From Promethearchaeota archaeon (GTDB taxonomy: Archaea > Asgardarchaeota > Lokiarchaeia > Sigyniarchaeales > SOKP01): DNA of 64,000 nucleotides. Under the pieces are notes generated by a model that saw nothing but the letters and a program-made list of their open reading frames with translations, made no database searches and had not been told where the DNA came from. The translations under genes were made by a program, and so were the position numbers. The stretch covers positions 64,001 through 128,000 of the forward strand of contig JAEOTZ010000072.1 in the NCBI GenBank assembly GCA_016839585.1. The letters run 5' to 3'. Within the stretch, counting starts at the first letter, position 1; the number at the start of each line of letters is the position of its first letter. Below are positions 5,507-29,974 of the stretch, piece by piece.

Positions 5507-8500
5507 ATGCTAAATCTTAAAATTTTAGAAGATTTTTCATTTGAAAATGATATTGATAATTTAGATAATATTTTTCAGATTATACTTATAGAACTAAAAA
5601 ATTACCTAGTTTTAAATCCTATCTTAGAAAATGTGAAATTTCTTTACAAAAGTCCCAAAGAATCTGAAAATTTAAGAAAAAATATTTTCAATATAGGAGT
5701 TGATAGACATTTTGAAAGTGGAATTTTAGTAATTGAGGTTTTTGAAAATTATATACAATTCCTACCAATAATTTTATTAAGAGAAATATATAATTCTTTT
5801 ATCCCTGAAGCCATAAAAGAAAATGAAGATATTCAATTTATTATAAATCAAATTGTTCTAAAAGATTTATCTAAATTACGTAAAATTTCTGAATGGAAAT
5901 CCCTACTTAATAAAAACGTAGTTACTTATGAATTATTAGTTTCACAACTTAATAAATTAGATAAATTTCTTAAATTACCTGGAGCTATACAATTTATTTT
6001 TGAATTTATGCGTAGAAATGTTCCATTAATTGAAGAGGGAATGGAGGATATTTATTATAAGATTTTTAAAGAATACGCGTTTAAAACGTCTAAATCTATA
6101 AACGATGATGATATTATCGAGACTTTAAGAGTCTTAATTAACATCTTTTATGATACAGAAGGCTATAAGTACTTATATGATTATCAAAACTTATTTGATG
6201 AAATGAAATCAAATGGAATAATCCAATCTGAATTAAGTAAAAGAAAGTTCACTGAAAATATGAAATGGATTAATAACTTTTCCTACATTTCCCCATCCTA
6301 TCAAATAAATTGGCAAGCATTAAATTTGGTAACAGTTATTTTCAATTTTAAATTTAATCCATTTCTAGAAAAAATAAAAATCTTTAAATTCATTGAACAA
6401 TCTCCATTTCTTATATCTCCCAAATATTCAATAAATAGTAAAATCACAGAAGTATTAGGTTACTTTCTGGTTCCCAAGGTTTATTTAGATGATTTAATAT
6501 CTTTTATTGAGAAGTTATATGATTATGGATATATTCTCGAAAAAAATTATCTTATTCTTCAGAAAATTTCAAACTTCTTGAATTTGAATTATTTTAGAGA
6601 ATTTCATAAGATTAAAAGAAAGATCATTAATTTAAATCATAGAAAATATGAAAAACAATACGAAATTTCATTTGAAATGGAATACAAACCTTCTTTTTAT
6701 GAATCAAAATTATCACTATTAGATTGGATTATTCTTGATAGACTACTCTATGTTTCAGTTACAGGATTTACATTTGAGAAAAGATCAGAAACATTAAATT
6801 ATTTAAAATCCGATTTAGAAGATGAAATTTTAAGTCAAAGTGTGTTAATTGAAAGTATAGATGAAAAATTATCAAAGATATATAACTCTCCAAATCTTAA
6901 AGAAGAAATTATAGAATTCTTAGATTATTATAATAAATTTGGATTTTTTTACGTTAAAGAATTATTAAAAAATCTTTTACTTTGTTTAAATTTAATAGAA
7001 AAGATTCTATTAGAAAATTTAGAAATTAAAAGCGAATATCTACTTTTAGAATTCTTGAAGAAAAATGGTATTTCTCAATCAATTGAAGAAAATATTATAT
7101 TTACTGATAGCAACATAAATAGAATTATTTTTAATGTATTTATACCCCTTTATATCAAATCAAAAGAAAAATTTAGACAAGAAGTTCGAAAGTATCAATT
7201 CCTTTATGAGTTTTTTATATTATGCAGTGATCTAAAAATTTTTAATCCGAAAGCAATGAGACAGATAATTGAAAACTCAGAATTAGGGAGAAGAATTAGT
7301 GATACAAAAAGGGAGAAATTTGAAATGTTCTATGATACAGAAAAACCACATAATATTACGATTCAAGTGATTGATGATAAATTTAAAGAATATCTCAACC
7401 AAAGTACCCACACTCCAGTAATTAAACCTATTTTAATTAACACAATTTATACAAGTGCCTTTTCTAAATATTTTCCTACCATTATTCTCAAAGATACAAT
7501 TGAAGCTAGGGATAAGTTGGATAAGATAAAATTATTTTTTCCAAGAGCTCTTATCATGTTTGTTAAAGATCTAATTTCTAATGAAAACTTAATTATTACA
7601 CAACTTTATCTCCCCAATTTAAAAGTAAAAGAAAAGAATATTTTTATTTCAATTCTTCATAGCATTTTTAAAAAAGATTTAATTAAATTTTCAAGATTTC
7701 ATTCCAGTGGAGAGATTGAATTCTATTCATTAAGAAATTTTTATAATTTTGATAATAAAAAATTCTTTTATACAAAAGATTTATTTGAACAATATTTTCT
7801 TTACTCTAGACAGCTTTTTGGAAAAGAGTTAAAATTAAATCAAGAATCCTATAATAAAATTCAAGGAAAATTTTGGTCCAAAGAAAGAGAAATGTTAAAT
7901 TTAGTTGAACAAATAAATATCAGATTCTCAAAGGAAAATATTGATCTTAACATTTCTAAATTAAATAATCTATTAGTATTTCATTATGATTTACAAAATT
8001 ATTTGTTAGATCGGGAGATATTTAACGGTGAAAAGTCAAAATATTTTTTTAAAAATTATATAAAGTCTATTAAATTTTTACCTGCTCTTCAATATTTTGG
8101 ATTTGGTCAATATTATGTATATATCTATCCCTATAACTTAGATGAAATAGATTTTAGACTTCTGTTGGACAATTCATTTCAAAAAGTCCAGTATCCAGTA
8201 TTCATGGATAAATCGACTTCGATATTCATAAAATATCTATGGCCATATCGAAATCCAAACTTATCATATATACACTGGCTCGCCAAATCGAAAAAGGATA
8301 TTCGAGAGTATTGTATATTCTTCATAAAAAAGATTTACCAACTCTTCCATTTTAACTATAATGTCAGTTCAAACAATTGGATTTATGATTCGAATAGGTT
8401 CAAAATATACATGCAAAATATCCTCTACAATCCTAATTATAAGGTTCAAATTTCAAAATTAAAGGAATTTAATGTAGGTAATTTAAATATCTCTCATTAT

Positions 8501-9150: not shown

Positions 9151-10632
9151 ATGGTTGAAGATCAAAAATATTTCGAAGAATTTGATTCATTATTTTACCC
9201 CAAACATATAGCTTTTATTGGAGCATCAGAGAGTTCTACTTTTGGGTCAATGATGTATTTATCTGCTTTTAAGGATTCAAGATGGAATAATAGTTTTTAT
9301 CCCGTTAATCCAAAACATACTAAAATAATGGAATGGAAATGTTATCCTACTGTTTTAGATATCTCTCACCCTATAGATACGGCTTATATTTCAGTTAAAA
9401 CACAGATTATCCCAAAAGTAGTTAAAGAATGTGTTGAGAAAGGTGTAAAATGGTTAATAGTTTTTGCTTCTGGATTTTCCGAAACAGGAGATCCTGAAGG
9501 AGAAAAATTGGAACAGGAACTTAAGGAAATAATTAAAGGCTCCAAAACAAGAATTATTGGTCCAAATTGTTTAGGTCCTTATAATGCAGAAATTGGAATG
9601 GCATTTACATTTGCTTCTCAAAAAGGGATACCTGGCTCAGTTTCTTTCATGTCTCAGTCTGGAGGTCATTTAAGTCAGTTATTAGATATTGGATTTAAAA
9701 GGGATATTAGATTTCGTTATGGAGTTTCTTTTGGAAACCAAATAGATCTCAATTGTGTCGATTTCTTAAAACATTTCCGTCAAGATCCTAAAACTAAAAT
9801 ATTAGCTAGCTATTTAGAAAGTTTCGGTTCCAGTAATGGACGTGGGTTTTTTTTAGAGCTTAAAAAAACAACAAATATTAAACCAGTAATATTATGGAAA
9901 GGAGGATATACAGATGATGGCTCTCGAGCAGCTTTTTCTCATACTGGAGCAATTGCTACTGATCAACGTTTATGGGCATCGATGGCTAAGCAGACTGGAG
10001 TTTTAATTGTAAAGGATAATGAACAATTTTGGAATACGATTAAAACATTTGAACTTTTATTTCCCCAATATTTTCCAAATGGAAGAAACGTCGGAATAGT
10101 AACTCCAGGAGGAGGATCTTCTGTAAATATGACAGATTTATTTGCAGATCATCTATTAAATGTGCCAGAATTAACCCTTGAATCTCAAGAAAAATTAAGT
10201 AAAATATTACCTAAAGAAAACGTAAATATTAAGAATCCTGTTGATCTTGGAGCGTCTGGTTTTGTTCTCAATATATTTATAGATTGTATTAAAAATGTAG
10301 TTAATGACTCCAATATTGACATAATTGTTGTTCCCTTGTGGCCCCATCATCTTTATAGCCATGTTTTTAAAAGAATGATAAAAGTTCAAAAAAATACCTT
10401 AAAACCTTTTACATTTTGTTTACCTAGTATAGCAGATTCCTTTGAATTAGCACAAAGATTTAAACAAGTGAAAAAGATACTGCATGAATATCGAGTTCTC
10501 TATTTTTTTTCGCTTCGGGATGCTGCAAACAGTCTTTCTTTATTATGTGATTATGTTGATTTCTTAAAATCTCGTAATATTGAAATAGAAAATAAGCAAC
10601 AAGTTTTAAATAGGAGTTTTCTTAAAAAATAG
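9151..10632 (+). CDS. Acyl-CoA synthetase (NDP-forming) alpha subunit / acetate-CoA ligase family
   Basis: CoA-binding IAFIGAS...YPVNP, ASGFSE, RIIGPNCLG, SQSGG, phospho-His in SHTGA, NPVDL. Confidence 0.9.
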   Translation: MVEDQKYFEEFDSLFYPKHIAFIGASESSTFGSMMYLSAFKDSRWNNSFYPVNPKHTKIMEWKCYPTVLDISHPIDTAYISVKTQIIPKVVKECVEKGVKWLIVFASGFSETGDPEGEKLEQELKEIIKGSKTRIIGPNCLGPYNAEIGMAFTFASQKGIPGSVSFMSQSGGHLSQLLDIGFKRDIRFRYGVSFGNQIDLNCVDFLKHFRQDPKTKILASYLESFGSSNGRGFFLELKKTTNIKPVILWKGGYTDDGSRAAFSHTGAIATDQRLWASMAKQTGVLIVKDNEQFWNTIKTFELLFPQYFPNGRNVGIVTPGGGSSVNMTDLFADHLLNVPELTLESQEKLSKILPKENVNIKNPVDLGASGFVLNIFIDCIKNVVNDSNIDIIVVPLWPHHLYSHVFKRMIKVQKNTLKPFTFCLPSIADSFELAQRFKQVKKILHEYRVLYFFSLRDAANSLSLLCDYVDFLKSRNIEIENKQQVLNRSFLKK

Positions 10633-10808
10633 TTCAGTTTATAGAACTGATTTTATAATATTTATTGTTTTTTTTATCACAAGTTTCTTCTCTTGAATAG
10701 AGAAAATGTTGAGAAGGTTTGTCAAAAGTTAAAACTATTCTCAAAAAAATAATATCTTTCTTTAAAAGCAACTCTTTTCACATAATCTCTCAATTATTTG
10801 ATTGAAAA

Positions 10809-11318
10809 CTAAAATTTTAAATTTTTATCATGTTTACGAGCCCAATTTAAAAGTATTTTGCTTTTTTTTGGAAAATTAAGTGTTAATACTTTTGCTGCTA
10901 TCTTTCTTATAGTTGGGCTCTCATCTGAGAGCAAACAATCCTGAAGAATTTGAAAAGCCTCATCATTTTTTAAACCCAATAATTCAAATGCTAGGATACT
11001 ATTTTCTCTAACTTCTATTTGATCACTATTTTCAATAAAAAATTTTAATAGATCAGTTGCTTCATTTTTGTTTAACTTCTTTGTAGTAACATAATCATAA
11101 ACTTTTGCTACGTCTAAGTCCTTATTCAAGAATTCCAGAGCATCTTGATATATTAATTTAGATTTAGAATTTTCTTCGATTTTTAATTTTTGAATTAAAT
11201 CAAATGGACAATCATGATTTTCTGGCAATCTATGATTTTTACAAAATATCATTCCGCAATATTTACATCTATATAGCAGTTTACTAATTTTAATATTACA
11301 ATAATAACAATTCGCCAT
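10809..11318 (-). CDS. AN1-type zinc finger + HEAT repeat protein
   Basis: CYYC-x9-CKYC-x4-CKNHRLPENHDC; C-terminal HEAT-like LLSDESPTIRKIAAKVL. Confidence 0.85.
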   Translation of the reverse strand: MANCYYCNIKISKLLYRCKYCGMIFCKNHRLPENHDCPFDLIQKLKIEENSKSKLIYQDALEFLNKDLDVAKVYDYVTTKKLNKNEATDLLKFFIENSDQIEVRENSILAFELLGLKNDEAFQILQDCLLSDESPTIRKIAAKVLTLNFPKKSKILLNWARKHDKNLKF

Positions 11319-11535
11319 TTTTATTCAATTAATTTAATAGATAAGTAAGTATAAACCTTTTTTATAAAAATTTTTTTCTGCCTAATATATTAATTCAGCC
11401 TTGATAATTCTTAAATCTTTGAATTGTTTAGGGTATTATAGAAAAAAACCAAATTTTTAATTCAATTTACAATTAGACTACACATACTTATTCAATATTT
11501 TATTAGGAAGAAATAAAGAATATGGAGAAAATGAT

Positions 11536-12993
11536 ATGGCTCGACCAAGTCCGTTAGAAATATATGCACTTTTAGATAAGTCTAATTGTAAAGAATGTGG
11601 ATATGATACATGTATGGCATTTGCTACAGATATTCTCGAAAGAAAAATCAAAGTTCAAGATTGTACTCATTTAATGCAAGAGAGAAAACAATTTAAAAAT
11701 CGAGACAAATTAATTAAACTTATAACGCCTCCGCAGAGACCTGTTACTATTGGTGTTGGTGATAGAGCAGTTACTATTGGGGGTGAAGAAGTTTTAATGA
11801 GACATCAACTTACTTATTATAATCAATCAGCAATATTTATAGAAATTGCGGATGATGATTCAGACTTAGAAGATATTGTTAAATACCTTACAGATCTTAA
11901 AATAGAAAGGATAGGGGATGTACTTACGCTTGATGGTCTTGCTTTAAGAAATGTTTCTGGTGATAAAGAACAATTCAAATTAGCAGCGAAAAAAATTGCA
12001 GAACTTTCGAATCTTCCAATTATGTTATGCTGTTTTAATGCAGATATACTATTAGAGACTGCAGAAGAAATTAAGGATAAAAGACCATTGCTCTATGCGG
12101 CAACTAAAGACACTTGGGAACAGGTAGGTAAATTTGCGGTTCAAAATGTTCTCCCTGTAGCTATAGTTTCAAGTAATTTAGATGAATTAATGTCTTTAAG
12201 TGCTACTTTACAAAAATTAGGTGTTAAAGGAATTATCTTAGATTCGGGTACTTTCTATGGTTCTGGTAAACTTTCAATTACTTATGATAATATCATGCAA
12301 TTAAGGAATGCTGCTATAAATAAAGAAGATCCTAATGCTAGTTGGCCTATAATGGGAGTACCTGCAGCTTATTGGAATCAAGTAAAAGTGGAAAATGATA
12401 AAGATCTATGGCTACATCAATATCAAGAAATTATAATGGGTGCTATAATGGAGTCAATAGATACTTCATTAATTGTGATCCATGCAGGGCAAAACAAGAA
12501 GGATATTTGGGCTCTCTTAGCCTTAATGACCTTGCGACAAAGTATTTTTTCTGATCCAAGAATTTATCCAGCTGTAGATCCTGGACTATATACAATTGGG
12601 GAACCAGATGATATGGCACCTATTTTTGTTACCAGTAATTATAGAATGACAAAAATCCCAGTAGAACAAGATTTACAGGGTGCTAATATTGATTGTTTGC
12701 TCTTAGTTGTTGATTCCGAAGGAATTGGTATTGAAAGTGCTGTAGCTGGTGGTCAATTCAATGCTGGTGGTATAGCTGAAGCCGTGAAAGAATTTGGTGC
12801 TTTTGATAAAGTTAAACATCGAATATTAATTATTCCAGGTATGGCTGCAAGATTAAGTGGATCTTTAGAAGATGAGGCAGATGCCTTTGTACTAGTCGGT
12901 CCCCGTGACAGCTCAGGTATTCCAAAATTTATGGAAACCCTATGGAAACCAGAAGAATGCATGAAAGAATACGAATCTTGGGAAAAGGAATAA
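11536..12993 (+). CDS. cdhE: Acetyl-CoA decarbonylase/synthase gamma subunit (corrinoid Fe-S protein large subunit, CdhE/AcsC)
   Basis: NCKECGYDTCMAFA Fe-S motif; IGGEEVL.RH; IFSDP; IIPGMAARLSG.LE; VGPRDSSGI. Confidence 0.92.
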   Translation: MARPSPLEIYALLDKSNCKECGYDTCMAFATDILERKIKVQDCTHLMQERKQFKNRDKLIKLITPPQRPVTIGVGDRAVTIGGEEVLMRHQLTYYNQSAIFIEIADDDSDLEDIVKYLTDLKIERIGDVLTLDGLALRNVSGDKEQFKLAAKKIAELSNLPIMLCCFNADILLETAEEIKDKRPLLYAATKDTWEQVGKFAVQNVLPVAIVSSNLDELMSLSATLQKLGVKGIILDSGTFYGSGKLSITYDNIMQLRNAAINKEDPNASWPIMGVPAAYWNQVKVENDKDLWLHQYQEIIMGAIMESIDTSLIVIHAGQNKKDIWALLALMTLRQSIFSDPRIYPAVDPGLYTIGEPDDMAPIFVTSNYRMTKIPVEQDLQGANIDCLLLVVDSEGIGIESAVAGGQFNAGGIAEAVKEFGAFDKVKHRILIIPGMAARLSGSLEDEADAFVLVGPRDSSGIPKFMETLWKPEECMKEYESWEKE

Positions 12994-19453: not shown

Positions 19454-21367
19454 TTAATAAAGATTAAAATCTTTAATATTAAATTTGTTAATCTTTTTCA
19501 TAATTGGAATAAGACTCAAAATATTGAAAATTATAAATGCTATAAACAGGAATGAAAGAAGAATGAATGGTAAGTATAATGGTGGTAAAGATACTCGCTC
19601 AAACAAGAAGACTGAGTTAATAATCATTCCTATTCCTAAACATAATAAAAGAGCAGGGATGATGATAAAGAGAGATTCCAAGAATAATATTTTTTTTAAA
19701 GACTTATTCTTTGATCCTATTGCCCGCATAATGAGAAAATCTTTAGCATTTTCAATGATTCCTCCTCGTTGATAAAAATTCAATATTAAAAGAGACACGA
19801 AAGCTATTATCAGGATTAAAATTATCGGGTATAATGATAAATTAAATAAATAATCTATATTTTTTTTGAAAATAGCGTCTAACTTTAGATGAATAAAATC
19901 TGCACCCAAATTATTAGTTATGTTAATGATTTCATCTATAATAATATTATAACTTCCAGATTTTAGTTTTAGTATAATTAAGTTGATTTCATCGTAAGTA
20001 AAATTTAATAGCTCACGAGATTCATTCAATCCAATATAACCAGCATAACCATTAAAGAAACTATCAATTAATACACCACAGATACCTGGTCTAAATGTTT
20101 TATTTAAACCCATAATCTCTAGATATTGATCTAAGGGATACTCAAAGAAATTGTATGCTAATCCATCTCCAATTGTCATATTTGCAAAAGAATCATCATT
20201 TGTAAAAAATCTACCTTCAAGTTCAAAATTTTGAATAATCTTCTCAGGATTTACTCCTATTATTGGAAAATTTCCAGTTCTTTGTTTTCCTACTGTTATA
20301 TATTCACCATCAATTATAATATGTCCATCCAATTCTTCAACATCATAAAAATTTATTAATCTCTCGTCTATCTTTTCAATATCATCAATTGTTTCCAGAT
20401 TATTAATGTCACTGAAATTAAAAATGTATTTTGTGTCTGTAAGATTTATTGTATCTTCATCAACTATTATTCTTGGATTTGAAAACATTTTATACATTAA
20501 GGAATAGTTATATACAACATCTTTGTGACCAATAACAACAATATTCTCACCCTGGGATTTTCTAATCCACTCCTGAGAAGAACTAGTTAAAACAATAGTG
20601 CCTAATCCCAAAGTAAAAATTATAAGAGAAATTAAACTAAAAACAATGATATATCTTCTAAATTCTCCCTTTCTTCTTATATTATTAATTACTGAAATTT
20701 TTAAATTAAATCCTAGTTTTGAAAGCCACTTTGGAACTAAACTTAATCTTTTCTTAGCATGAAAATTATAAGGTATATCTGCTGAAAAAGTTTTAATTAT
20801 TTTTTGAGCTCCAATTTTCCTTAAAGCATAACCAGTTACAAAAAAAATACCCAAAATACAAGAAATGAATATAATAGGTGTATAAAACCAATCAATTTGA
20901 AAATTTATAGGAACATTTAATAAAAACATGATTAAAGTAAATATTCCAAATGATATCAAGCCCAGAATCCAGCCAAGGATAAAACCTAGTATAAAAATAA
21001 TAAATGCTTCGAGAAGATAAAAGCTATATAATTTCCCTGGTAGGGTACCCAACGCTTTCATTATTGCAATATCTCTTTTCTTATGGATAATTAACGTAGT
21101 TGTAATGACAACAACTACAACTATTGATAAAATGATTACTAAAACAAGTACTAAAGAAATAAACTCTTTATATACTAAATTAATTGCACCTGTAAAGAAA
21201 TAGTTATTTTTTAAACTGGTAGATATTATCATATTTAAACCAAATGAAGATGTGAAATATATTAAAAATTCTGTTAAAGCAATTACCAAAACAATAATCA
21301 GTAAATAAGGGATGGTGGTATCCCTCTTTCGATATATATCTTTTAAAACAAAATCAAGTGAAGTCAC
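19454..21367 (-). CDS. ABC transporter permease, FtsX/MacB-like (two FtsX domains)
   Basis: KRDIAIMKALG and DFLIMRAIG motifs; large extracellular loop. Confidence 0.9.
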   Translation of the reverse strand: MTSLDFVLKDIYRKRDTTIPYLLIIVLVIALTEFLIYFTSSFGLNMIISTSLKNNYFFTGAINLVYKEFISLVLVLVIILSIVVVVVITTTLIIHKKRDIAIMKALGTLPGKLYSFYLLEAFIIFILGFILGWILGLISFGIFTLIMFLLNVPINFQIDWFYTPIIFISCILGIFFVTGYALRKIGAQKIIKTFSADIPYNFHAKKRLSLVPKWLSKLGFNLKISVINNIRRKGEFRRYIIVFSLISLIIFTLGLGTIVLTSSSQEWIRKSQGENIVVIGHKDVVYNYSLMYKMFSNPRIIVDEDTINLTDTKYIFNFSDINNLETIDDIEKIDERLINFYDVEELDGHIIIDGEYITVGKQRTGNFPIIGVNPEKIIQNFELEGRFFTNDDSFANMTIGDGLAYNFFEYPLDQYLEIMGLNKTFRPGICGVLIDSFFNGYAGYIGLNESRELLNFTYDEINLIILKLKSGSYNIIIDEIINITNNLGADFIHLKLDAIFKKNIDYLFNLSLYPIILILIIAFVSLLILNFYQRGGIIENAKDFLIMRAIGSKNKSLKKILFLESLFIIIPALLLCLGIGMIINSVFLFERVSLPPLYLPFILLSFLFIAFIIFNILSLIPIMKKINKFNIKDFNLY

Positions 21368-21380
21368 TTTCTAATACCAT

Positions 21381-22139
21381 TTATCCTTCATTTCTTTTAG
21401 TTAATATATCTTCCTTTACTATTTTCCCATCATCAAATAGTAGAATTCTATCTGCTAAAGCTAGCAAATAATCATCATGAGTAGCAATAATAATTGTGAC
21501 ATCATCATTCTTTAAATCATTAAAAAGATCTCTAATAAACTGACTTGTTTTTTTATCTAAATTAGCAGTTGGCTCATCGGCAAGTATAAGGGGAGGATTA
21601 TTTGATAGAGCTCTAGCAATTGCAACTCTCTGCTGTTCTCCAGCTGATAATTGAAATGGCAGGTGTTCTCTGCGTTCACCTAATCCCATTTTTCTTAATA
21701 AATTAACTGCACGTTCTCTTTGCTCTTTAAATTTCATACCTGCAAGATTCATTGGAAACATAACGTTTTCCTCAGCAGTAAGAGTACTTATAAGATTATA
21801 ATTTTGAAAAATGAATCCTGAATTTATTAACCTAAACGTTGCTAGCGATTCTTCTTTCATATCAGAAATTTTGATGCCCAGATTGTAAATTATTCCTTTG
21901 TTGGGGGTATCTAATCCACCTAATAAATTTAATAGAGTTGTTTTTCCTGCTCCAGAAGGTCCTTTAATACAAAGAAATTTACCATTCCTAATTTTTAAAG
22001 ACACATTATCAACTGCTCTAACAATAAATTCACCTATTTCATAATCTTTAACTAAATTCATAGCAATAATGTGATAATTCTTTATCTCATCTAACTCTAA
22101 AGCACCATCTTCTTCTTCAAATTCTTCTTTTACTGTCAA
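21381..22139 (-). CDS. ABC transporter ATP-binding protein (LolD/MacB type)
   Basis: GPSGAGKTT, LSAGEQQR, LADEPTANLD, ATHD. Confidence 0.95.
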   Translation of the reverse strand: MTVKEEFEEEDGALELDEIKNYHIIAMNLVKDYEIGEFIVRAVDNVSLKIRNGKFLCIKGPSGAGKTTLLNLLGGLDTPNKGIIYNLGIKISDMKEESLATFRLINSGFIFQNYNLISTLTAEENVMFPMNLAGMKFKEQRERAVNLLRKMGLGERREHLPFQLSAGEQQRVAIARALSNNPPLILADEPTANLDKKTSQFIRDLFNDLKNDDVTIIIATHDDYLLALADRILLFDDGKIVKEDILTKRNEG

Positions 22140-22574: not shown

Positions 22575-23207
22575 ATGGATTTTGAAAAATTAACGGAACT
22601 TATAATTGAATTAGAAGTGGATGATATTGCTGATGCAGTAAAGGAAGCATTGGATGAGGAAAAAGATCCTTTTGATGTTTTGAATGCATTAACTAAGGGA
22701 ATGGATGAAGTTGGGCGTCGATATGAAGAAAAAGATTATTATTTAACCGAATTGGTACTAGCGGGAGAAACTATGAAGGAGGCTTTTACTATTTTAAAAC
22801 CAGCTTTAGCTGCTGTCGATAAATCACAAGAGAAAGTTAAAATAATCATTGGTACCGTAAAGGGGGATAATCATGATATTGGTAAAAATATATTAGGATC
22901 ATTGCTCTTGAGCTCTGGTTTTGAAATTTATGACCTTGGAATGGATGTTGATGAAAAAGCAATTGTTGAGAAGGTTAAAGAAACAGGAGCAACTATTATT
23001 GGATTAAGCTCCCTTCTTACGATGACTGTTGAACACATTAAAACTGTCCATGAAGCTTTGGTTGATGCTGGGCTCCGTGATAAAGTTAAATTAATTGTTG
23101 GGGGCGCTCCTTTAAATATGGAACTTGCTAAAAGACTTGGAGCTGATGATTTTGCAGATGATGCCGTGGAAGGTATAAAACATATCAAGAAGTTAGCAGG
23201 GATGTAA
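22575..23207 (+). CDS. Corrinoid (B12-binding) methyltransferase cognate protein, MtbC/MttC-like
   Basis: B12-binding_2 cap domain plus DNHDIG..I, SSLLT and VGGAP motifs. Confidence 0.92.
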   Translation: MDFEKLTELIIELEVDDIADAVKEALDEEKDPFDVLNALTKGMDEVGRRYEEKDYYLTELVLAGETMKEAFTILKPALAAVDKSQEKVKIIIGTVKGDNHDIGKNILGSLLLSSGFEIYDLGMDVDEKAIVEKVKETGATIIGLSSLLTMTVEHIKTVHEALVDAGLRDKVKLIVGGAPLNMELAKRLGADDFADDAVEGIKHIKKLAGM

Positions 23208-23477: not shown

Positions 23478-23732
23478 TTGAGTGAGAAAGATAATAACGA
23501 TGTTGAATATGATGAAGAATTAGATACACGAGGTTTATTTTGTCCAGAACCTCTTTTCGAGGTTAGGAATTTAAGTGAAACCCTTGAAGTAGGGCAATGT
23601 TTTAAAGTGATTGCTGATGATCCTGCTGCTGAGGAGGATCTTACGCGGTGGGCTAAGAGGACAGAGACACAATTAGTAGAGTTTAGAAAGGATGGGGACG
23701 ATTTAATATTTTATTTTAAAAAAGTAAAATAA
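23478..23732 (+). CDS. tusA: Sulfurtransferase TusA family protein
   Basis: LDTRGLFCPEP...ADDPAAEED; SD GGAGG upstream. Confidence 0.9.
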   Translation: MSEKDNNDVEYDEELDTRGLFCPEPLFEVRNLSETLEVGQCFKVIADDPAAEEDLTRWAKRTETQLVEFRKDGDDLIFYFKKVK

Positions 23733-23737
23733 AAGAG

Positions 23738-24109
23738 ATGAGAAAAAAAATGGAAGAAAAACATATTCTTTATGTTCAAACAAGTCATGATCCAGAAAGA
23801 CAATATAGTCCTCTTGTTTTAGCTCAAACTGCTAAGGCAATGGATATTAAAGCTACTGTTTATTACTTAGGTACTGCTTTAAGAATATTAAAACCTGGAG
23901 AGGCTGAAAAGATAAAACTTGGTGATTTTCCCAGTGTTAAAGAAATGATTGATAAAACATTAAATATGGGTATTGAAATATTAGTATGCGAAGCTTCAAA
24001 GCGAATGTTAGGTTGGGAAAAAGCGGAGCTCATTCCAGGCATTAAAATTGTAGGTGCTGCAACTTTAAATGATTTAGTCTTAGATGCTGATGCAACACAG
24101 TGGTTTTAA
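23738..24109 (+). CDS. DsrE/DsrF-like sulfur relay protein (start possibly ATG 23750)
   Basis: LAQTAKAMD...YYLG...GIEILVCEAS...VGAATL. Confidence 0.85.
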   Translation: MRKKMEEKHILYVQTSHDPERQYSPLVLAQTAKAMDIKATVYYLGTALRILKPGEAEKIKLGDFPSVKEMIDKTLNMGIEILVCEASKRMLGWEKAELIPGIKIVGAATLNDLVLDADATQWF

Positions 24110-24175
24110 TATTTATTTAATTGAGATAATTATATAAATTATTAATTAAAGAATTTTATAATTGAGGAGGTAAAA

Positions 24176-25369
24176 ATGAGTATATATCTGGATTATCAAG
24201 CAGCAAAACCAGTTGATGTAAGAGTAGTTTCAGAGATGACTATATACTTTAATAACAAGTTTGCTAATCCATCTTCTTTACATTGCGATGGGGATGAAGC
24301 AACTGATGCATTAATTGAATCTCGCCAAAAAATTGCTGATTTTATTAATGCTCCAAACACATCAGATATAATTTTTACATCAAGTGCTACTGAATCAAAC
24401 AATCTAGCACTTATAGGTTCAGCAATGAGAAATAAAAAGAAAGGCAACCATATAATTATATCCGAGATTGAACATATATCCATATTAAATATCGCTAAAT
24501 ATTTGGAACGTGAAGGTTTCAAGGTTAGTAGAGTTCCCGTAGATCAATTTGGAATTATTAAACTTGAGAAGTTGGAGAAATTAATAAATGATCAGACAAT
24601 TTTAATTTCAATCTCTACTGCGAGTAATGAGGTTGGATCTCTTCAACCAATAAAAGAGATTAGTGAAATTGCGGCAAAAAAGAATGTTTTATTTCATACT
24701 GATGCTGTAGCTAGTGAAGGTGTTATTCCGATCGATGTACAAAAAGTACCGATAGATATGATGACCTTATCTTCGAATGATATTTATGGACCTAGGGGTG
24801 TCGGAGCACTTTACTTAAAAAAGGGAGTACGTATAAATCCAATAATAATAGGTGGCGGTCAAGAACGAGGATTGAGATCTGGTTCAGAAAATGTCCCTGG
24901 TATCGTAGGTTTTGCTAAAGCAGCTGAAATTATGAGAGAAGAAATTAAAACAGAAGTAATAAGGCTAAAAAGTATGAGAGACAAACTGATTCAAGAAGTA
25001 TTAAGTAGAGTTCCAAATTCGTATTTAAATGGACATCCTGAAAAACGACTTCCTAATAATGCACATTTTAGATTTGATTATATTGAAGGAGAATCATTAA
25101 TATTATCTTTAAAAGATCAAAAAGTAGCTGCTGCCACGGGTTCTGCATGTTCATCAAAGACCTTAGAACCATCTCATACATTAATTTCAATGGGTTTATT
25201 ACATGAAGAGGCTCATGGCAGTTTATTATTCACATTAGGCAGGTTTACAAAAGAAGCTGATCTTGATAAAGCAATAGAAGTTTTACCTGGAATTGTTAAA
25301 CGTTTACGATTATTATCCCCTTTAACGCCTCCTGAATTAATAAAAAAGTATAATGAGGTGAATGATTAG
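24176..25369 (+). CDS. iscS: IscS/NifS-family protein with Asp in place of the PLP Schiff-base Lys
   Basis: ANPSS.H, FTSSATESNN, HTDAVA, SSNDIYGPRG (canonical S.HK.YGPKG), RSGSEN, GSACSS. Confidence 0.92.
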   Translation: MSIYLDYQAAKPVDVRVVSEMTIYFNNKFANPSSLHCDGDEATDALIESRQKIADFINAPNTSDIIFTSSATESNNLALIGSAMRNKKKGNHIIISEIEHISILNIAKYLEREGFKVSRVPVDQFGIIKLEKLEKLINDQTILISISTASNEVGSLQPIKEISEIAAKKNVLFHTDAVASEGVIPIDVQKVPIDMMTLSSNDIYGPRGVGALYLKKGVRINPIIIGGGQERGLRSGSENVPGIVGFAKAAEIMREEIKTEVIRLKSMRDKLIQEVLSRVPNSYLNGHPEKRLPNNAHFRFDYIEGESLILSLKDQKVAAATGSACSSKTLEPSHTLISMGLLHEEAHGSLLFTLGRFTKEADLDKAIEVLPGIVKRLRLLSPLTPPELIKKYNEVND

Positions 25370-26168
25370 AATGAAATCTACACAATATACTGAAAAAGTG
25401 TTAGACCATTTTAGAAATCCAAGAAATGTTGGAGTAATAGAAAAACCAGATGGGTATGGTAAAGTTGGAAATCCTGTTTGTGGAGATTTAATGGAAATCT
25501 TCATTAAAGTGGGTAAAAATGATTCTGGAGAAGAAGTAATTGATGATGTTAAATTTAGAACTTTTGGATGCGGGTCTGCAGTGGCTACATCCTCAATGGT
25601 AACTACAATGGCTAAAGGGATGAAAGTTGATGATGCTTATAAAATAACTCGAAATGATGTTGCTGATGAGTTAGAAGGATTACCCCCAATAAAGATGCAT
25701 TGTTCAAACTTAGCGGCTGATGCCTTAAAAGCGGCTATAGATAATTATAGAACCAAATCAGACCCTTATGTCGAAATTGAGGCTAGAGCTTGCTCAGTAC
25801 CGGATATTAAAATAATTCTTGGTGAGGATGAGTTTCTTGGAAAAGGAGTTTATAAGAAAGTTGATGATTTGTCTGAATTTAATGGAAAAAGAGTTTTAGT
25901 GGTAGATACTGGAGATAAATCCTTAGAGCTTGCGATGAAATTAACTAAACATACTGGGAGAGTTGTAGTATTAACTTCTGCTAAAACTACACCTGGTTCA
26001 GAAGAATTAAAGAAAAAATTGAAACTATCAGATGTTAAAATCTTACACGAATCAGAGTTATTAGAAATTCAAGGTACTGATGATGTTGAAAAAGTAATAA
26101 TTCAAGATTTTGATGAAGATGAAAAATATGAATTATTCGTTGATACAGTCATCATACTTGAAGTTTAA
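25362..26168 (+). CDS. iscU: IscU/NifU scaffold fused to a degenerate thioredoxin-reductase NAD(P)H-domain (start probably ATG 25371)
   Basis: YTEKVLDHFRNPRNVG, GNPVCGD, FGCGSA, KMHCSNL; C-terminal GEDEFLGKGV...KRVLVV. Confidence 0.9.
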   Translation: MIRMKSTQYTEKVLDHFRNPRNVGVIEKPDGYGKVGNPVCGDLMEIFIKVGKNDSGEEVIDDVKFRTFGCGSAVATSSMVTTMAKGMKVDDAYKITRNDVADELEGLPPIKMHCSNLAADALKAAIDNYRTKSDPYVEIEARACSVPDIKIILGEDEFLGKGVYKKVDDLSEFNGKRVLVVDTGDKSLELAMKLTKHTGRVVVLTSAKTTPGSEELKKKLKLSDVKILHESELLEIQGTDDVEKVIIQDFDEDEKYELFVDTVIILEV

Positions 26169-26377
26169 GCAATTAAAAATTTTTTTTATTACTATTTCTA
26201 ATGAATTTTCAAATTATAAATAAAAAGCTCTTATAACTATAAAAGTCATGGATGTCAGCTCATATAATCTTTAAGTTATAATAGCGAGTTTTAAATTTAA
26301 ATGCAATTTATTTATTCTCAAAAGTAGTGTAAAAATCATACATAACTAAAATTAAAACAGATCGAGAGAGTGTTAAA

Positions 26378-28771
26378 ATGGATCGAGAGAGAATTGTAAT
26401 TGTTGGTGGAGTTGCTGGAGGAGCCTCTGCGGCAGCAAGGTTAAGGAGATTACGAGAGGATTTAGAAATTGTCATGTTAGATAAAGGTCCGTATGTTAGT
26501 TTTGCCAACTGCGGGCTTCCATATTATGTGGGAAATGTAATAAAGGATCGCGAGTCTTTAGAACTAGTCTCACCAGAGATGTTCCTAGAAAGGTTCAATA
26601 TTGATGTTAGAGTTAATAATGAAGTAATTTCAATAGATAAAGAGAAAAAGCAAGTCAAAGTCAGAGATTTAAAAAAATTGTACGAATACTTCTTAGATTA
26701 TGATAACTTGATTTTAGCAACTGGCTCAAATCCTATTGTACCTTCTTTTAATGGTCTTGAGGATGTACCATATTTTACAGTATGGTCTATACCCGATGCT
26801 GTAAAAATTAGAGATTATGTTGAAAAACATAATATAAAGAATGCTGTTATCGTTGGTGGTGGCTTTATTGGATTAGAAATGGCAGAAAACTTAGTTGAGA
26901 AGAGAGTGAAAGTAAAAATAGTGGAAATGCTAGATCAGGTAATGCCACCAATAGATAAGGAAATAGCGCAATTTATTCATCAAGAATTAATATTAAATGG
27001 AGTTTGTCTCGTTTTAGAAGATCCCGTAGATTCCTTTGGAAGAACTGAAGCTGGCCAACCTTTTGTTAAAACCAAAAGTGGTCGTGTTATAGAAACAGAT
27101 CTGATAATTTTATCAATAGGTATTAGACCAGAAAGTAAGTTGGCTAAAGAAGCAGATTTAGAATTAACAGAAAGAGGTTATATAAAGGTTAATCGTAGAA
27201 TGTTAGCATCTGATCCCAGTATTTATGCTGTTGGAGATACTATTCAAGTTCAGCATTATCAAACAAATCAACCAATATCTATAGCCTTAGCAGGTCCAGC
27301 AAATAAACAAGGGAGAATTGCGGCAGAAAATGTTGCCGGAAGAAATTTAGAATATAAAGGAATTTTGGGAGCATCTGTAGTTAAAATTTTTGATGTCACT
27401 GTTGCTTCTGCAGGTTTAACAGAAAAACAACTAAAAAATACCACTATTAAATATGAAAAAATATATGTACATCCAAACAATCATGCTGGTTACTATCCAG
27501 GAGCTATACCAATAACGATTAAATTAATTTTCGAAGTACCTAGTGGTAAAGTTCTTGGAGCTCAGGCTGTTGGAGGTCAAGGTACAGAAAAAAGAATTGA
27601 TGTCATCTCTACTGTAATTAAGTTTGGTGGGACAGTTTTTGACTTGGAAGAATTAGAGTTAACTTATGCTCCTCCGTATGGTTCTGCAAAAGATCCAGTA
27701 AATATGGCAGGATTTGTTGCGGCAAATTATCTTAGAGAAGATATGCCTATTTGGCATTGGCATGATATTAATGAAGTTAAAACTAATGGAGGTATATTAT
27801 TAGATGTTAGAACCAAAGAAGAATATGCAGCTAGAACCATCGAGGACTCAATGAACGTACCAATTGAAGAATTAAGAAAACGATTAAGTGAAATACCTAA
27901 TAATGGGCCAATCTACGTCTATTGCGAAGTAGGATATAGAAGTTATTTAGCTACTAGGATTCTTTTACAAAGTGGATTTAAAGAAGTCTATGAATTAACC
28001 GGAGGATTTAAAATTTTTGAAATGGCAAATGCTACCACAGAAGAAATAATGGCTGCATGTGGAGGATCCGAAAACGTTATCGAGGAATTTGTACATGAAA
28101 AAGCTATTGAAACAGATAATTATGTAGAAGTTGATGCTTGTGGATTATCCTGTCCAGGACCTCTCAATGTGTTAATCAAATCACTTGATACATTACCTGA
28201 AAATAAAAAATTAAAAATCTATGCTACTGACCCAGGATTTAAATCTAGTGTTGAAGCCTATTCTAAATTAAATGAAGCTGTAAAATTATTACATCTTGGA
28301 AAAGAAGAAGGGAAGTTAGTAGCTACTTTAGAAAAAGTCCAGCCCACTATAGAAGTTATACCTACTGTTAGAAAGAAAACTAGAAAGGAATTAAGACCTC
28401 CTGATGCACCTCCGATTTCAGATATTAATGTTGATGAATTATATGAACGAATTGATACTGAAGATGAGCCAGTACTCTTAATTGATGTCAGAACCTCACA
28501 GGAATTTTATGGTTCAGGGGGTCATATAAAGAATTCCAAGTTAATTCCCTTAGGAGAATTATTAAATAATACAGATGTCATAAAAGATTATAAGAATGAA
28601 GAAATAGTTGTGATTTGTCATTCCGGGTCTCGCTCTATGATGGCAGCTCAATTGTTAGCACAGGCAGGATTCAAGGACGTTAGAAACCTCTTAGGGGGAA
28701 TAATGATATGGCACCGAAAAGGTTATCCCGTAAAGTTAGAAGAAGAAAGAATGGCAGGAACATTTTATTGA
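26378..28771 (+). CDS. CoA-disulfide/persulfide reductase fusion: CoADR-rhodanese-TusA-rhodanese
   Basis: GGVAGGAS, SFANCGLPY, GGGFIGLE, YAPPY; rhodanese YCEVGYRS; TusA DACGLSCPGP; rhodanese ICHSGSRS. Confidence 0.92.
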   Translation: MDRERIVIVGGVAGGASAAARLRRLREDLEIVMLDKGPYVSFANCGLPYYVGNVIKDRESLELVSPEMFLERFNIDVRVNNEVISIDKEKKQVKVRDLKKLYEYFLDYDNLILATGSNPIVPSFNGLEDVPYFTVWSIPDAVKIRDYVEKHNIKNAVIVGGGFIGLEMAENLVEKRVKVKIVEMLDQVMPPIDKEIAQFIHQELILNGVCLVLEDPVDSFGRTEAGQPFVKTKSGRVIETDLIILSIGIRPESKLAKEADLELTERGYIKVNRRMLASDPSIYAVGDTIQVQHYQTNQPISIALAGPANKQGRIAAENVAGRNLEYKGILGASVVKIFDVTVASAGLTEKQLKNTTIKYEKIYVHPNNHAGYYPGAIPITIKLIFEVPSGKVLGAQAVGGQGTEKRIDVISTVIKFGGTVFDLEELELTYAPPYGSAKDPVNMAGFVAANYLREDMPIWHWHDINEVKTNGGILLDVRTKEEYAARTIEDSMNVPIEELRKRLSEIPNNGPIYVYCEVGYRSYLATRILLQSGFKEVYELTGGFKIFEMANATTEEIMAACGGSENVIEEFVHEKAIETDNYVEVDACGLSCPGPLNVLIKSLDTLPENKKLKIYATDPGFKSSVEAYSKLNEAVKLLHLGKEEGKLVATLEKVQPTIEVIPTVRKKTRKELRPPDAPPISDINVDELYERIDTEDEPVLLIDVRTSQEFYGSGGHIKNSKLIPLGELLNNTDVIKDYKNEEIVVICHSGSRSMMAAQLLAQAGFKDVRNLLGGIMIWHRKGYPVKLEEERMAGTFY

Positions 28772-28893: not shown

Positions 28894-29484
28894 ATGAAAG
28901 AAACTACTAAAAAATTATATACCGCATATGTTGGAGAATCACAAGCAAGAAATAGATATAATTATTTTTCTAAAATTGCGAAAAAAGAAGGATATGTATT
29001 AGTGTCTAAAATTTTTGACGAAACATCAGATCAAGAGAAGGAACATGGTAGCTGGTTTTATAAAATGCTGCAACAGTTCAAAAAGGAAGAACCCTTTGAT
29101 GAAATGAAAGTACTCCCTGATGCAGAATTTCCAACAACCCATGGAACTACAATCGAGAATTTAAAATCTGCAATTAATGGCGAAAATATGGAATGGCAAA
29201 CACTTTACCCTGATATAGTTAAGACTGCTGAAAAAGAGGGGTATCCTGACATTGCCAAAAGAGTAAGTGCAATTATAAAGGCAGAAAAACATCACTCTGA
29301 GAGATATGGTAAGCTTCTTAAGTTGGTTGGTGATGATGCCTTCTTTAAACGAGGAAAGAAGGTCGTGTGGGTCTGTATGGAATGCGGTTATGAGGTAGAA
29401 ATGGATGAATTACCAAAAGATTTCAAATGTCCATCTTGTGATCACCCTAGAGAATATTATAGAAAGAAATGTGAAGATTTTTAG
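28894..29484 (+). CDS. rbr: Rubrerythrin
   Basis: GESQARNRY, E.EH, E.HH, WVCMECGY...CPSCDHP. Confidence 0.95.
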   Translation: MKETTKKLYTAYVGESQARNRYNYFSKIAKKEGYVLVSKIFDETSDQEKEHGSWFYKMLQQFKKEEPFDEMKVLPDAEFPTTHGTTIENLKSAINGENMEWQTLYPDIVKTAEKEGYPDIAKRVSAIIKAEKHHSERYGKLLKLVGDDAFFKRGKKVVWVCMECGYEVEMDELPKDFKCPSCDHPREYYRKKCEDF

Positions 29485-29584: not shown

Positions 29585-29974
29585 ATGAAACGAAAAGATA
29601 TATATAAGTGTGAAATTTGTGGAAAAGTAATTGAGATCCTTAATCCAGCAGCACCCGAAACAATCTGTTGCGGTCAACCTATGACATTAATGGAGGAGCT
29701 TTCCAAAGATTGGAAACTAGAGAAGCATGTCCCAAAGATCACAATTGAAGGCAATAAAGTAACTGTTGATGTGGGTATTTCAATGGGAACTCCTCATCCA
29801 ATGACAATGGAACATTGGATTATGTGGGTTGAGATAATGTGCAAAGATGGTTGCTACGAAAGAAGATTTTTAAATCCTGGAGATGAGCCTAAAGCAACTT
29901 TTACTGTTGCAAATCCAGAGGGTCTCATAGCAAGGGAATATTGCAATATCCATGGATTATGGATATCTAAGTAA
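29585..29974 (+). CDS. dfx: Desulfoferrodoxin (2Fe superoxide reductase)
   Basis: YKCEICG...CCG, EKHVP, HPM..EH.I.W, YCNIHGLW. Confidence 0.95.
   Translation: MKRKDIYKCEICGKVIEILNPAAPETICCGQPMTLMEELSKDWKLEKHVPKITIEGNKVTVDVGISMGTPHPMTMEHWIMWVEIMCKDGCYERRFLNPGDEPKATFTVANPEGLIAREYCNIHGLWISK

Follow-up and report, generated by a model that had tools for sequence, protein, structure and literature searches.

IscS2 of Archaeoglobus fulgidus is an inactive paralog of the cysteine desulfurases that binds pyridoxamine 5′-phosphate and may only donate a cysteine ligand to the [2Fe-2S] cluster of IscU (PMC8918507). The A. fulgidus IscS–IscU pair is reported to have no desulfurase activity, the loop cysteine of its IscS is the fourth ligand of the cluster forming on IscU, and the sulfur source of that cluster is an open question, to which free sulfide is the published guess (PMC8918507). 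What donates electrons in the related MIS systems, which occur in archaea and anaerobic bacteria, and which accessory factors they use are stated to be unknown (PMC13066941). Sulfur carriers of the DsrE3 type are homotrimers with one conserved cysteine, which are loaded from polysulfide and hand the sulfur on to TusA in an essentially one-way manner, and DsrE3-to-TusA transfer has been demonstrated in vitro (PMC11094781). Here, we analyze a locus of the Asgard archaeon Promethearchaeota archaeon (contig JAEOTZ010000072.1, positions 64,001 to 128,000; 64,000 nucleotides, hereafter the window) that encodes members of all these protein families. Its conserved unit is a cassette of four genes (23478–26168, + strand): tusA, dsrE, an iscS that lacks the lysine for pyridoxal 5′-phosphate (PLP), and an iscU fused to a degenerate NADPH domain of thioredoxin reductase (TrxR).

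IscS is encoded at 24176–25369 (+) as a class-V aminotransferase of 397 aa (Aminotran_5 PF00266, E 1.7e-73). Its residues 199–206 read SSNDIYGP, compared with S-x-H-K-x-Y-G-P in IscS/NifS; Asp202 (codon 24779–24781) replaces the PLP lysine, and Asn replaces the preceding His. The loop cysteine is retained (GSAC325SS). A sequence-only reading of this DNA had noted the missing lysine, and alignment of Asp202 to the SxHK motif of Lys-bearing enzymes confirms it; the change from Lys to Asp as such was already published for the A. fulgidus IscS2 type (PMC8918507). The protein scores 468 bits with TIGR03402 and 406 bits with TIGR02006, both under the equivalog cut-offs of these NifS/IscS models. The top Protein Data Bank (PDB) match is A. 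fulgidus IscS2 (4EB5/4EB7/4HVK, E 4.3e-139), which carries the same SSND motif and outscores any Lys-bearing PDB enzyme by ~125 bits. SSND202IYGP aligns to SSND199IYGP of 4EB5, and entry 4R5F is the D199K mutant of that protein. Among the order-level orthologs scored by the pattern SSNDIYGP plus GSAC[ST]S, 24 of 26 have it. The lysine column of the 62 IscS-probed loci of the clade described below holds Asp in 61 and Ser in one, and Cys325 is present in 62/62. By its likeness to A. fulgidus IscS2, the window IscS belongs to the same type and is predicted to be devoid of cysteine desulfurase activity. Glu variants (SSNE) occur among loci retrieved with a DsrE probe (L070, L071, L074, L119, and L134), some of them 91–92% identical to the window IscS, and the lysine position seems to need an acidic residue, not Asp specifically.

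In a FastTree phylogeny of 207 IscS/NifS sequences, from which the A. fulgidus sequence itself is absent, one purely Lys-less clade was recovered (50 tips, support 0.998), with 46 Asp, two Ser, one Ala, and one Pro at the lysine position. All Asp-type sequences and the Ser variant of Odinarchaeum fall inside this clade, and its sister group contains the Asgard Lys-bearing paralogs. Other Lys-less sequences (the bacterial P0156 group, L174, and L186) lie outside the main clade as separate, smaller losses. The NifS/IscS-like paralogs L174 (G033:C1:2026958-2028100), L186 (G152:C52), and L228 (G164:C4:330685-331767), which have AAPT, DAHV, or no HK motif, all stand outside the main Lys-less clade, have no adjoining tusA or dsrE, and look like independent lysine losses. 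Natural fusions are also found among the nearest IscS/NifS cluster representatives: TusA::IscS (P0153), Se/S-carrier::IscS (P0222), IscS::IscU (P0157), and Rrf2 regulator::IscS (P0129/P0201/P0268).

In 27 relatives, we compared the ~15 kb that surround the IscS ortholog. Each of the four families of the order has the arrangement tusA-dsrE-iscS-iscU::tail, set among unrelated flanking genes, and nearly all of these loci keep the SSND and GSAC motifs. In a phylum-level sample of 150 Asgard genomes, a Lys-less IscS was found in eight further families, mostly with Asp and, in Odinarchaeum, with Ser. Both tusA and dsrE lie upstream in four of these families (f9, f14, f15, and f5) and at one locus of f6; in f21, tusA is upstream without dsrE. 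The four-gene core recurs between changing flanks in every family of the order and in several Asgard families outside it, and the arrangement therefore exceeds chance.

The linkage was then counted over loci retrieved by the IscS probe only, with duplicates removed; a pooled tally was set aside, since the DsrE-probed loci in it bias towards DsrE adjacency. The Lys-less clade is represented by 62 distinct loci, 59 of them informative on the upstream side, where TusA is encoded in 54 and DsrE in 30; IscU follows in 51/60 and the tail in 44/60. The Lys-bearing enzymes are represented by 33 distinct loci (31 upstream-informative), with no TusA, no DsrE, IscU downstream in 12/31, and the tail in 0/31. 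The sequence-only reading had tied the loss of the lysine to tusA and dsrE, and this part of it is borne out by the counts: tusA and/or dsrE is directly upstream at 55/59 Lys-less loci versus 0/31 Lys-bearing loci. Likewise, no adjoining co-oriented carrier gene was found at the Lys-bearing IscS–IscU loci of four other families or at 18 Lys-bearing paralog loci of cassette genomes. In a metagenomic lineage of 65% GC that falls within the clade (P0121 type), tusA immediately precedes the Lys-less iscS at 6/6 loci, with neither dsrE nor iscU found nearby in those six.

Variant arrangements were also seen. In f15 (L156 and L157, from G063 and G052; L221:1462-2676, −), tusA, dsrE, and the Lys-less iscS are followed by a SufS-type desulfurase gene instead of iscU, and its product carries the S-I-HK lysine and an RSGMFC cysteine. 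At L154 (G042:C10, f6), dsrE and the Lys-less iscS come after three tusA-like genes in tandem, and this genome carries another Lys-less iscS-iscU locus (L153) that has no carrier genes.

In the window, tusA (23478–23732, +) is preceded by a GGAGG ribosome-binding site and encodes an 84-aa protein (PF01206, 66.7 bits, E 1.7e-18) that remains under the equivalog cut-off for E. coli TusA (49 versus 78 bits). The active-site Cys22 lies in G-L-F-C-P-E-P (23532–23552); the CPxP motif is intact, and 20 orthologs all share C22, P23, and P25. After a gap of 5 bp follows dsrE (23738–24109, +), which encodes a DsrE3-like sulfur carrier of 123 aa (PF02635, E 2.8e-14). Its sole cysteine, Cys84 in V-C-E-A-S-K (23984–24001), is invariant in orthologs and aligns with the cysteine of the closest solved relative, 3MC3 (SSO1125, DsrE3A type; E 4.8e-16). 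This clustered gene is the only DsrE copy in the window's genome, and in a dsrE scan of genome contigs the best 80 matches are all Asgard. Most congeners keep a solo dsrE away from the cassette, 83–93% identical and with variable neighbors. In two of these (L077 and L084, ~8001-8357), the tblastn match starts ~60–90 bp before the first in-frame ATG/GTG/TTG, which means either an unusual start codon or a shorter N-terminus. In E. coli, TusA binds IscS; a complex prediction for the window's IscS and TusA gave a score of 0.00, which weighs neither for nor against binding. The gap between dsrE and iscS is 66 bp, and iscS and iscU overlap by 8 bp.

The fourth gene (25362–26168, +) encodes a 268-aa fusion protein. 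Its IscU domain (residues 1–140; 25362–25781) matches NifU_N over residues 8–133 (E 2.3e-46), scores above the cut-off of TIGR03419 (190.8 versus 187.9 bits), and finds PDB entries 7c8m (E 2.3e-57) and 4eb5_C; 45 sequences show no variation at the ligand residues C40, D42, C70, H113, and C114. An AlphaFold2 model built with 45 sequences shows two confident domains joined by a disordered linker (134–149), with a mean predicted local distance difference test score of 83.7 and ~90 for the IscU domain. The tail (residues ~150–268; 25782–26168) has weak matches to TrxR at 150–265 (TIGR01292, E 3.8e-14; PDB 2zbw, E 9e-09). In Foldseek, its structure finds the NAD(P)H domains of TrxR and of TrxR-like ferredoxin-NADP reductases (2zbw, 3lzw, 2q7v, and 3f8d) over 113–129 columns at 25–31% identity, and the alignment runs colinear with TrxR, beginning shortly ahead of the CxxC and reaching as far as the NADPH domain does. 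The tail has Y-K-K-V in place of the CxxC (GKGVYKKV, 25839–25862), D-T-G-D-K-S in place of the GxGxxG (VVDTGDKS, 25899–25922), and T-S-A in place of the HRR, and it lacks the FAD domain. Lacking all four elements, the tail is a homologous domain and not a reductase on its own, and a role as an active reductase was ruled out. Its conservation extends over the order, f9, and f21, whereas f5, f6, f14, f15, and f18 lack it. Phe173 of the tail is nearly invariant and stands where the thioredoxin-docking Phe-Phe of E. coli TrxR would be. The tail is probably a docking or regulatory module.

An IscS that is predicted to form no persulfide by itself, yet has its loop cysteine in place and both carriers and IscU as neighbors, is most simply taken as the receiving end of a relay, and we assign a probability of roughly 0.55 to the reading that the four-gene cassette is a Lys-less IscS–IscU type fed with sulfane sulfur from DsrE through TusA and IscS to IscU. 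In such a relay, polysulfide or low-molecular-weight persulfides of the sulfidic sediment would load Cys84 of DsrE, the sulfur would pass to Cys22 of TusA and on to Cys325 of IscS at the IscU assembly site, and there it would be reduced and built into the cluster. The flow would have to run towards IscS because IscS is predicted to be inactive and IscU is the only obvious sink in the operon. We infer both the direction of transfer from TusA to IscS and Fe–S clusters as the output. A more far-reaching version would make the cassette a self-contained, sulfane-fed Fe–S line that provides in cis each function the minimal system lacks: DsrE and TusA replace desulfuration, and the tail keeps only the thioredoxin-docking surface of TrxR and recruits a thioredoxin-like reductant to IscU for the reduction of persulfide to sulfide; this we hold to be rather improbable. 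If true, Fe–S biogenesis in Asgard archaea and further anaerobes would have a third route of sulfur entry, in addition to cysteine desulfurases and free sulfide.

Downstream of the cassette, at 26378–28771 (+), lies a gene for a fusion protein of 797 aa with the Pfam domains Pyr_redox_2, Pyr_redox_dim, TusA, and two Rhodanese, arranged as CoA-disulfide reductase (CoADR), rhodanese, TusA, and rhodanese. The sequence-only reading had treated 23478–28771 as one system of five co-oriented genes. All five open reading frames are indeed on the + strand, and the cysteine-based sulfur sites it noted in each gene are present, namely, TusA C22, DsrE C84, IscS C325, the IscU ligands, and C45, C516, C592, and C747 of the fusion. 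The five-gene unit itself did not hold. The core is four genes, separated from the CoADR gene by a spacer (26169–26377) in which a T8 run (26180–26187), terminator-like for archaea, begins 12 bp after the iscU stop and is followed by AT-rich sequence with TATA-like boxes; the distance to the CoADR start is 210 bp. To judge from this spacer, the CoADR gene looks like a separate transcription unit. RNA evidence consists of one metatranscriptome run with a small share of the locus, in which short contigs from relatives bridge no gene junction and leave the spacer between iscU and the CoADR gene uncovered. In 13/18 congeners, the gap that separates iscU from the CoADR gene contains, on the opposite strand, a gene for an HdrD-like protein (Fer4_8 and two CCG domains), at some loci together with an OsmC-like gene. 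At L040, for example, the HdrD-like protein has 377 aa (10022–11155, −) and the OsmC-like gene is at 11267–11821 (+), with OsmC-like products of 181–196 aa. The HdrD-like gene has the same place in L039, L041, L042, L044, L046, L050, L051, and L053; the window has neither gene.

Residues 4–550 of the fusion match 3ICR (E 1.5e-170, residues 4–548), 3NTA, 8A56, and 6PFZ. The redox cysteine C45, both dinucleotide motifs, rhodanese C516, TusA C592, and C747 of the second rhodanese are in place, and the score is under the NCBIfam equivalog cut-off for CoA-disulfide reductase (497 versus 578.8 bits). To judge from these motifs and matches, the fusion probably reduces CoA persulfide or polysulfide with NAD(P)H and brings carrier domains of its own. 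In a phylum-wide search, the full four-domain protein was found only in g1, g12, g14, and g16, four of the six sampled genera of the window's family, where it follows the cassette; adjacency had been considered as a genus-level trait, and this was dropped in favor of a family-level one. No full fusion was found in the cassette-bearing genera g13 and g15, and CoADR-rhodanese was found in 0/27 genomes of f9. The CoADR search returned only distant Nox-like matches in f14, f15, and f5, and f7 has a two-domain CoADR-rhodanese without a Lys-less IscS.

The fusion gene is followed by rbr (rubrerythrin, 28894–29484), dfx (desulfoferrodoxin, 29585–29974), and then a CitMHS transporter gene. The placement of the system right before these O2-defence genes, to which the sequence-only reading had given weight, is thus real at this locus, but it is confined to the window's family: rbr and dfx travel with the CoADR fusion and adjoin the cassette only there. 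We read the CoADR gene as a family-specific accessory or a neighbor, in a thiol and oxidative-stress neighborhood that includes the HdrD-like, OsmC, rbr, and dfx genes. The fusion may act on the same sulfane-sulfur pool, supplying or detoxifying it; the cassette is not dependent on it. On the 5′ side, a gene for a 210-aa corrinoid-binding protein (B12-binding plus B12-binding_2; 22575–23207, +) ends ~270 bp before tusA. It keeps this spot in most loci of the window's family, beside a divergent ABC transporter pair (19454–22139, −, in the window).

The same genomes also contain canonical machinery. The window's genome (3.45 Mb, 99% complete) encodes a Lys-bearing NifS/IscS with SAHKIYGP and GSACSS motifs (C3:75373-76482), a stand-alone IscU of 127 aa 8 kb from it, a SufB homolog, and three more distant NifU_N proteins. 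Given this NifS/IscS, the additional IscU, and the SufB homolog, the cysteine independence that the sequence-only reading had proposed for the system cannot be claimed for the organism. SufS-type enzymes that retain both the lysine (S-x-HK) and the cysteine (RxGxxC) are encoded in the cassette genomes of f9, f15, and f5.

Several observations weigh against a relay that ends at the Lys-less IscS. Adjacency gives no direction, canonical TusA accepts sulfur from IscS, and a natural fusion of TusA to a Lys-bearing IscS exists (P0153). Four Lys-less loci (f6a, f20, and two of f18) have neither carrier gene adjoining, and in the window's genus dsrE is missing from the cluster in 15/18 loci, with the solo copy kept elsewhere. 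Most of the counted loci are kin, so that the tallies show long retention of an old arrangement and not many independent origins. Free sulfide alone supports related minimal systems (PMC13066941). In an alternative that we consider unlikely, the Lys-less IscS–IscU pair would build clusters from free sulfide, as has been suggested for A. fulgidus and for the minimal systems of methanogens, and TusA and DsrE would serve as outlets, carrying sulfur of the complex or of another desulfurase to pathways such as tRNA thiolation or molybdenum cofactor synthesis, or as buffers of reactive sulfur near the scaffold. Sulfide is the published proposal for the A. fulgidus IscS (PMC8918507), MIS and SMS systems are able to use it (PMC13066941), and it is plausible in the marine sediment from which the DNA came. 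In E. coli, as is well established, sulfur runs from IscS to TusA and on to TusBCD, a complex of the DsrE family, and the TusA::IscS fusion would fit such an outward flow. However, an IscS that is unable to form a persulfide has nothing for TusA, and the carriers are linked to the Lys-less clade only, with 0/31 at the loci of the Lys-bearing enzymes that could feed them. The published transfer between DsrE3 and TusA, moreover, heads to TusA and not away from it.

A canonical-looking desulfurase is present in every cassette genome examined, and cysteine could therefore still be the ultimate sulfur source. A desulfurase encoded elsewhere (the C3 NifS/IscS here and SufS-type enzymes in other families) would then make the persulfide, and TusA and DsrE would ferry it to the Lys-less IscS–IscU pair. 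The SAHKIYGP enzyme of the window's genome and the SufS-type enzymes of f9, f15, and f5 could fill this role, and in f15 the SufS-like gene comes directly after the Lys-less iscS, in the place of iscU. Outside f15, however, no canonical gene is linked to tusA or dsrE, and at 12/31 loci the Lys-bearing NifS has its own IscU beside it, which suggests a separate, self-sufficient line. We regard this cysteine-fed route as distinctly unlikely. Very unlikely, in our estimate, is the five-gene arrangement in which the CoADR-Rhd-TusA-Rhd protein, driven by NAD(P)H, is part of the system and feeds it with sulfur derived from (poly)sulfide, and the whole is an Fe–S assembly and repair module tied to rbr and dfx. 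The fusion does adjoin the cassette in g1, g12, g14, and g16 whenever the contigs allow, its own TusA and rhodanese domains have intact cysteines, and its relatives 3NTA and 8A56 are persulfide reductases. Against this stand the cassette-bearing g13, g15, and f9, in which the fusion was not found (CoADR-Rhd in 0/27 genomes of f9), the Nox-like matches, all distant, in f14, f15, and f5, and the presence of CoADR-Rhd in f7 without a Lys-less IscS, as well as the T8 run and spacer after iscU, the opposite-strand HdrD-like gene that intervenes in most congeners, and the restriction of rbr and dfx adjacency to the window's family. The relay from DsrE through TusA to the Lys-less IscS and IscU, supplied with sulfane sulfur, is the reading we prefer.

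The Lys-to-Asp IscS type is already known. In the literature searched, no paper describes the linkage of TusA and DsrE to a Lys-less IscS–IscU pair or the IscU tail, and a search under the A. fulgidus locus tags found nothing relevant. The linkage of TusA and DsrE3-like carriers, exclusive to the Lys-less clade, provides a concrete hypothesis for the sulfur supply of "dead-enzyme" IscS–IscU pairs, one that involves four small soluble proteins, and it does so in a lineage of interest for the ancestry of eukaryotic Fe–S biogenesis. The CoADR-rhodanese enzyme and the O2-defence genes are not to be counted in the system.

Compared with described systems, the CoADR fusion matches CoADR-RHD, Npsr, and CoA-persulfide reductases (3ICR, 3NTA/3NTD, and 8A56; A. 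fulgidus NoxA-3, 6PFZ) end to end over residues 4–550 (E 1.5e-170 to 1e-100) but is extended at the C-terminus by a TusA domain with C592 and another rhodanese with C747. The carriers share protein families and active-site cysteines with the IscS-TusA-TusBCD pathway of E. coli and with the DsrE3-TusA cascades of Metallosphaera, Hyphomicrobium, and Thioalkalivibrio. In E. coli, however, sulfur starts at an active IscS and leaves to tRNA, whereas the window IscS is predicted from its motif to be inactive, and in the sulfur oxidizers DsrE3-TusA sulfur goes to sHdr or Dsr, whereas the only obvious sink in the operon studied here is IscU. The MIS system (MisS–MisU) likewise combines an IscS-like with an IscU-like protein, without chaperones or ferredoxin, and coexists with a SufB/SufC-type (SMS) system in one genome (PMC13066941). 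Characterized MisS proteins, such as that of Methanosarcina acetivorans, are PLP-dependent desulfurases, whereas the clade of the window is Lys-less and carrier-linked. The closest likeness is to A. fulgidus IscS2–IscU, which shares the SSND motif and the loop cysteine and whose IscU (4eb5_C) matches the window domain; that pair was treated alone, with free sulfide proposed, whereas the window pair is preceded by tusA and dsrE and its IscU carries a TrxR-like tail.

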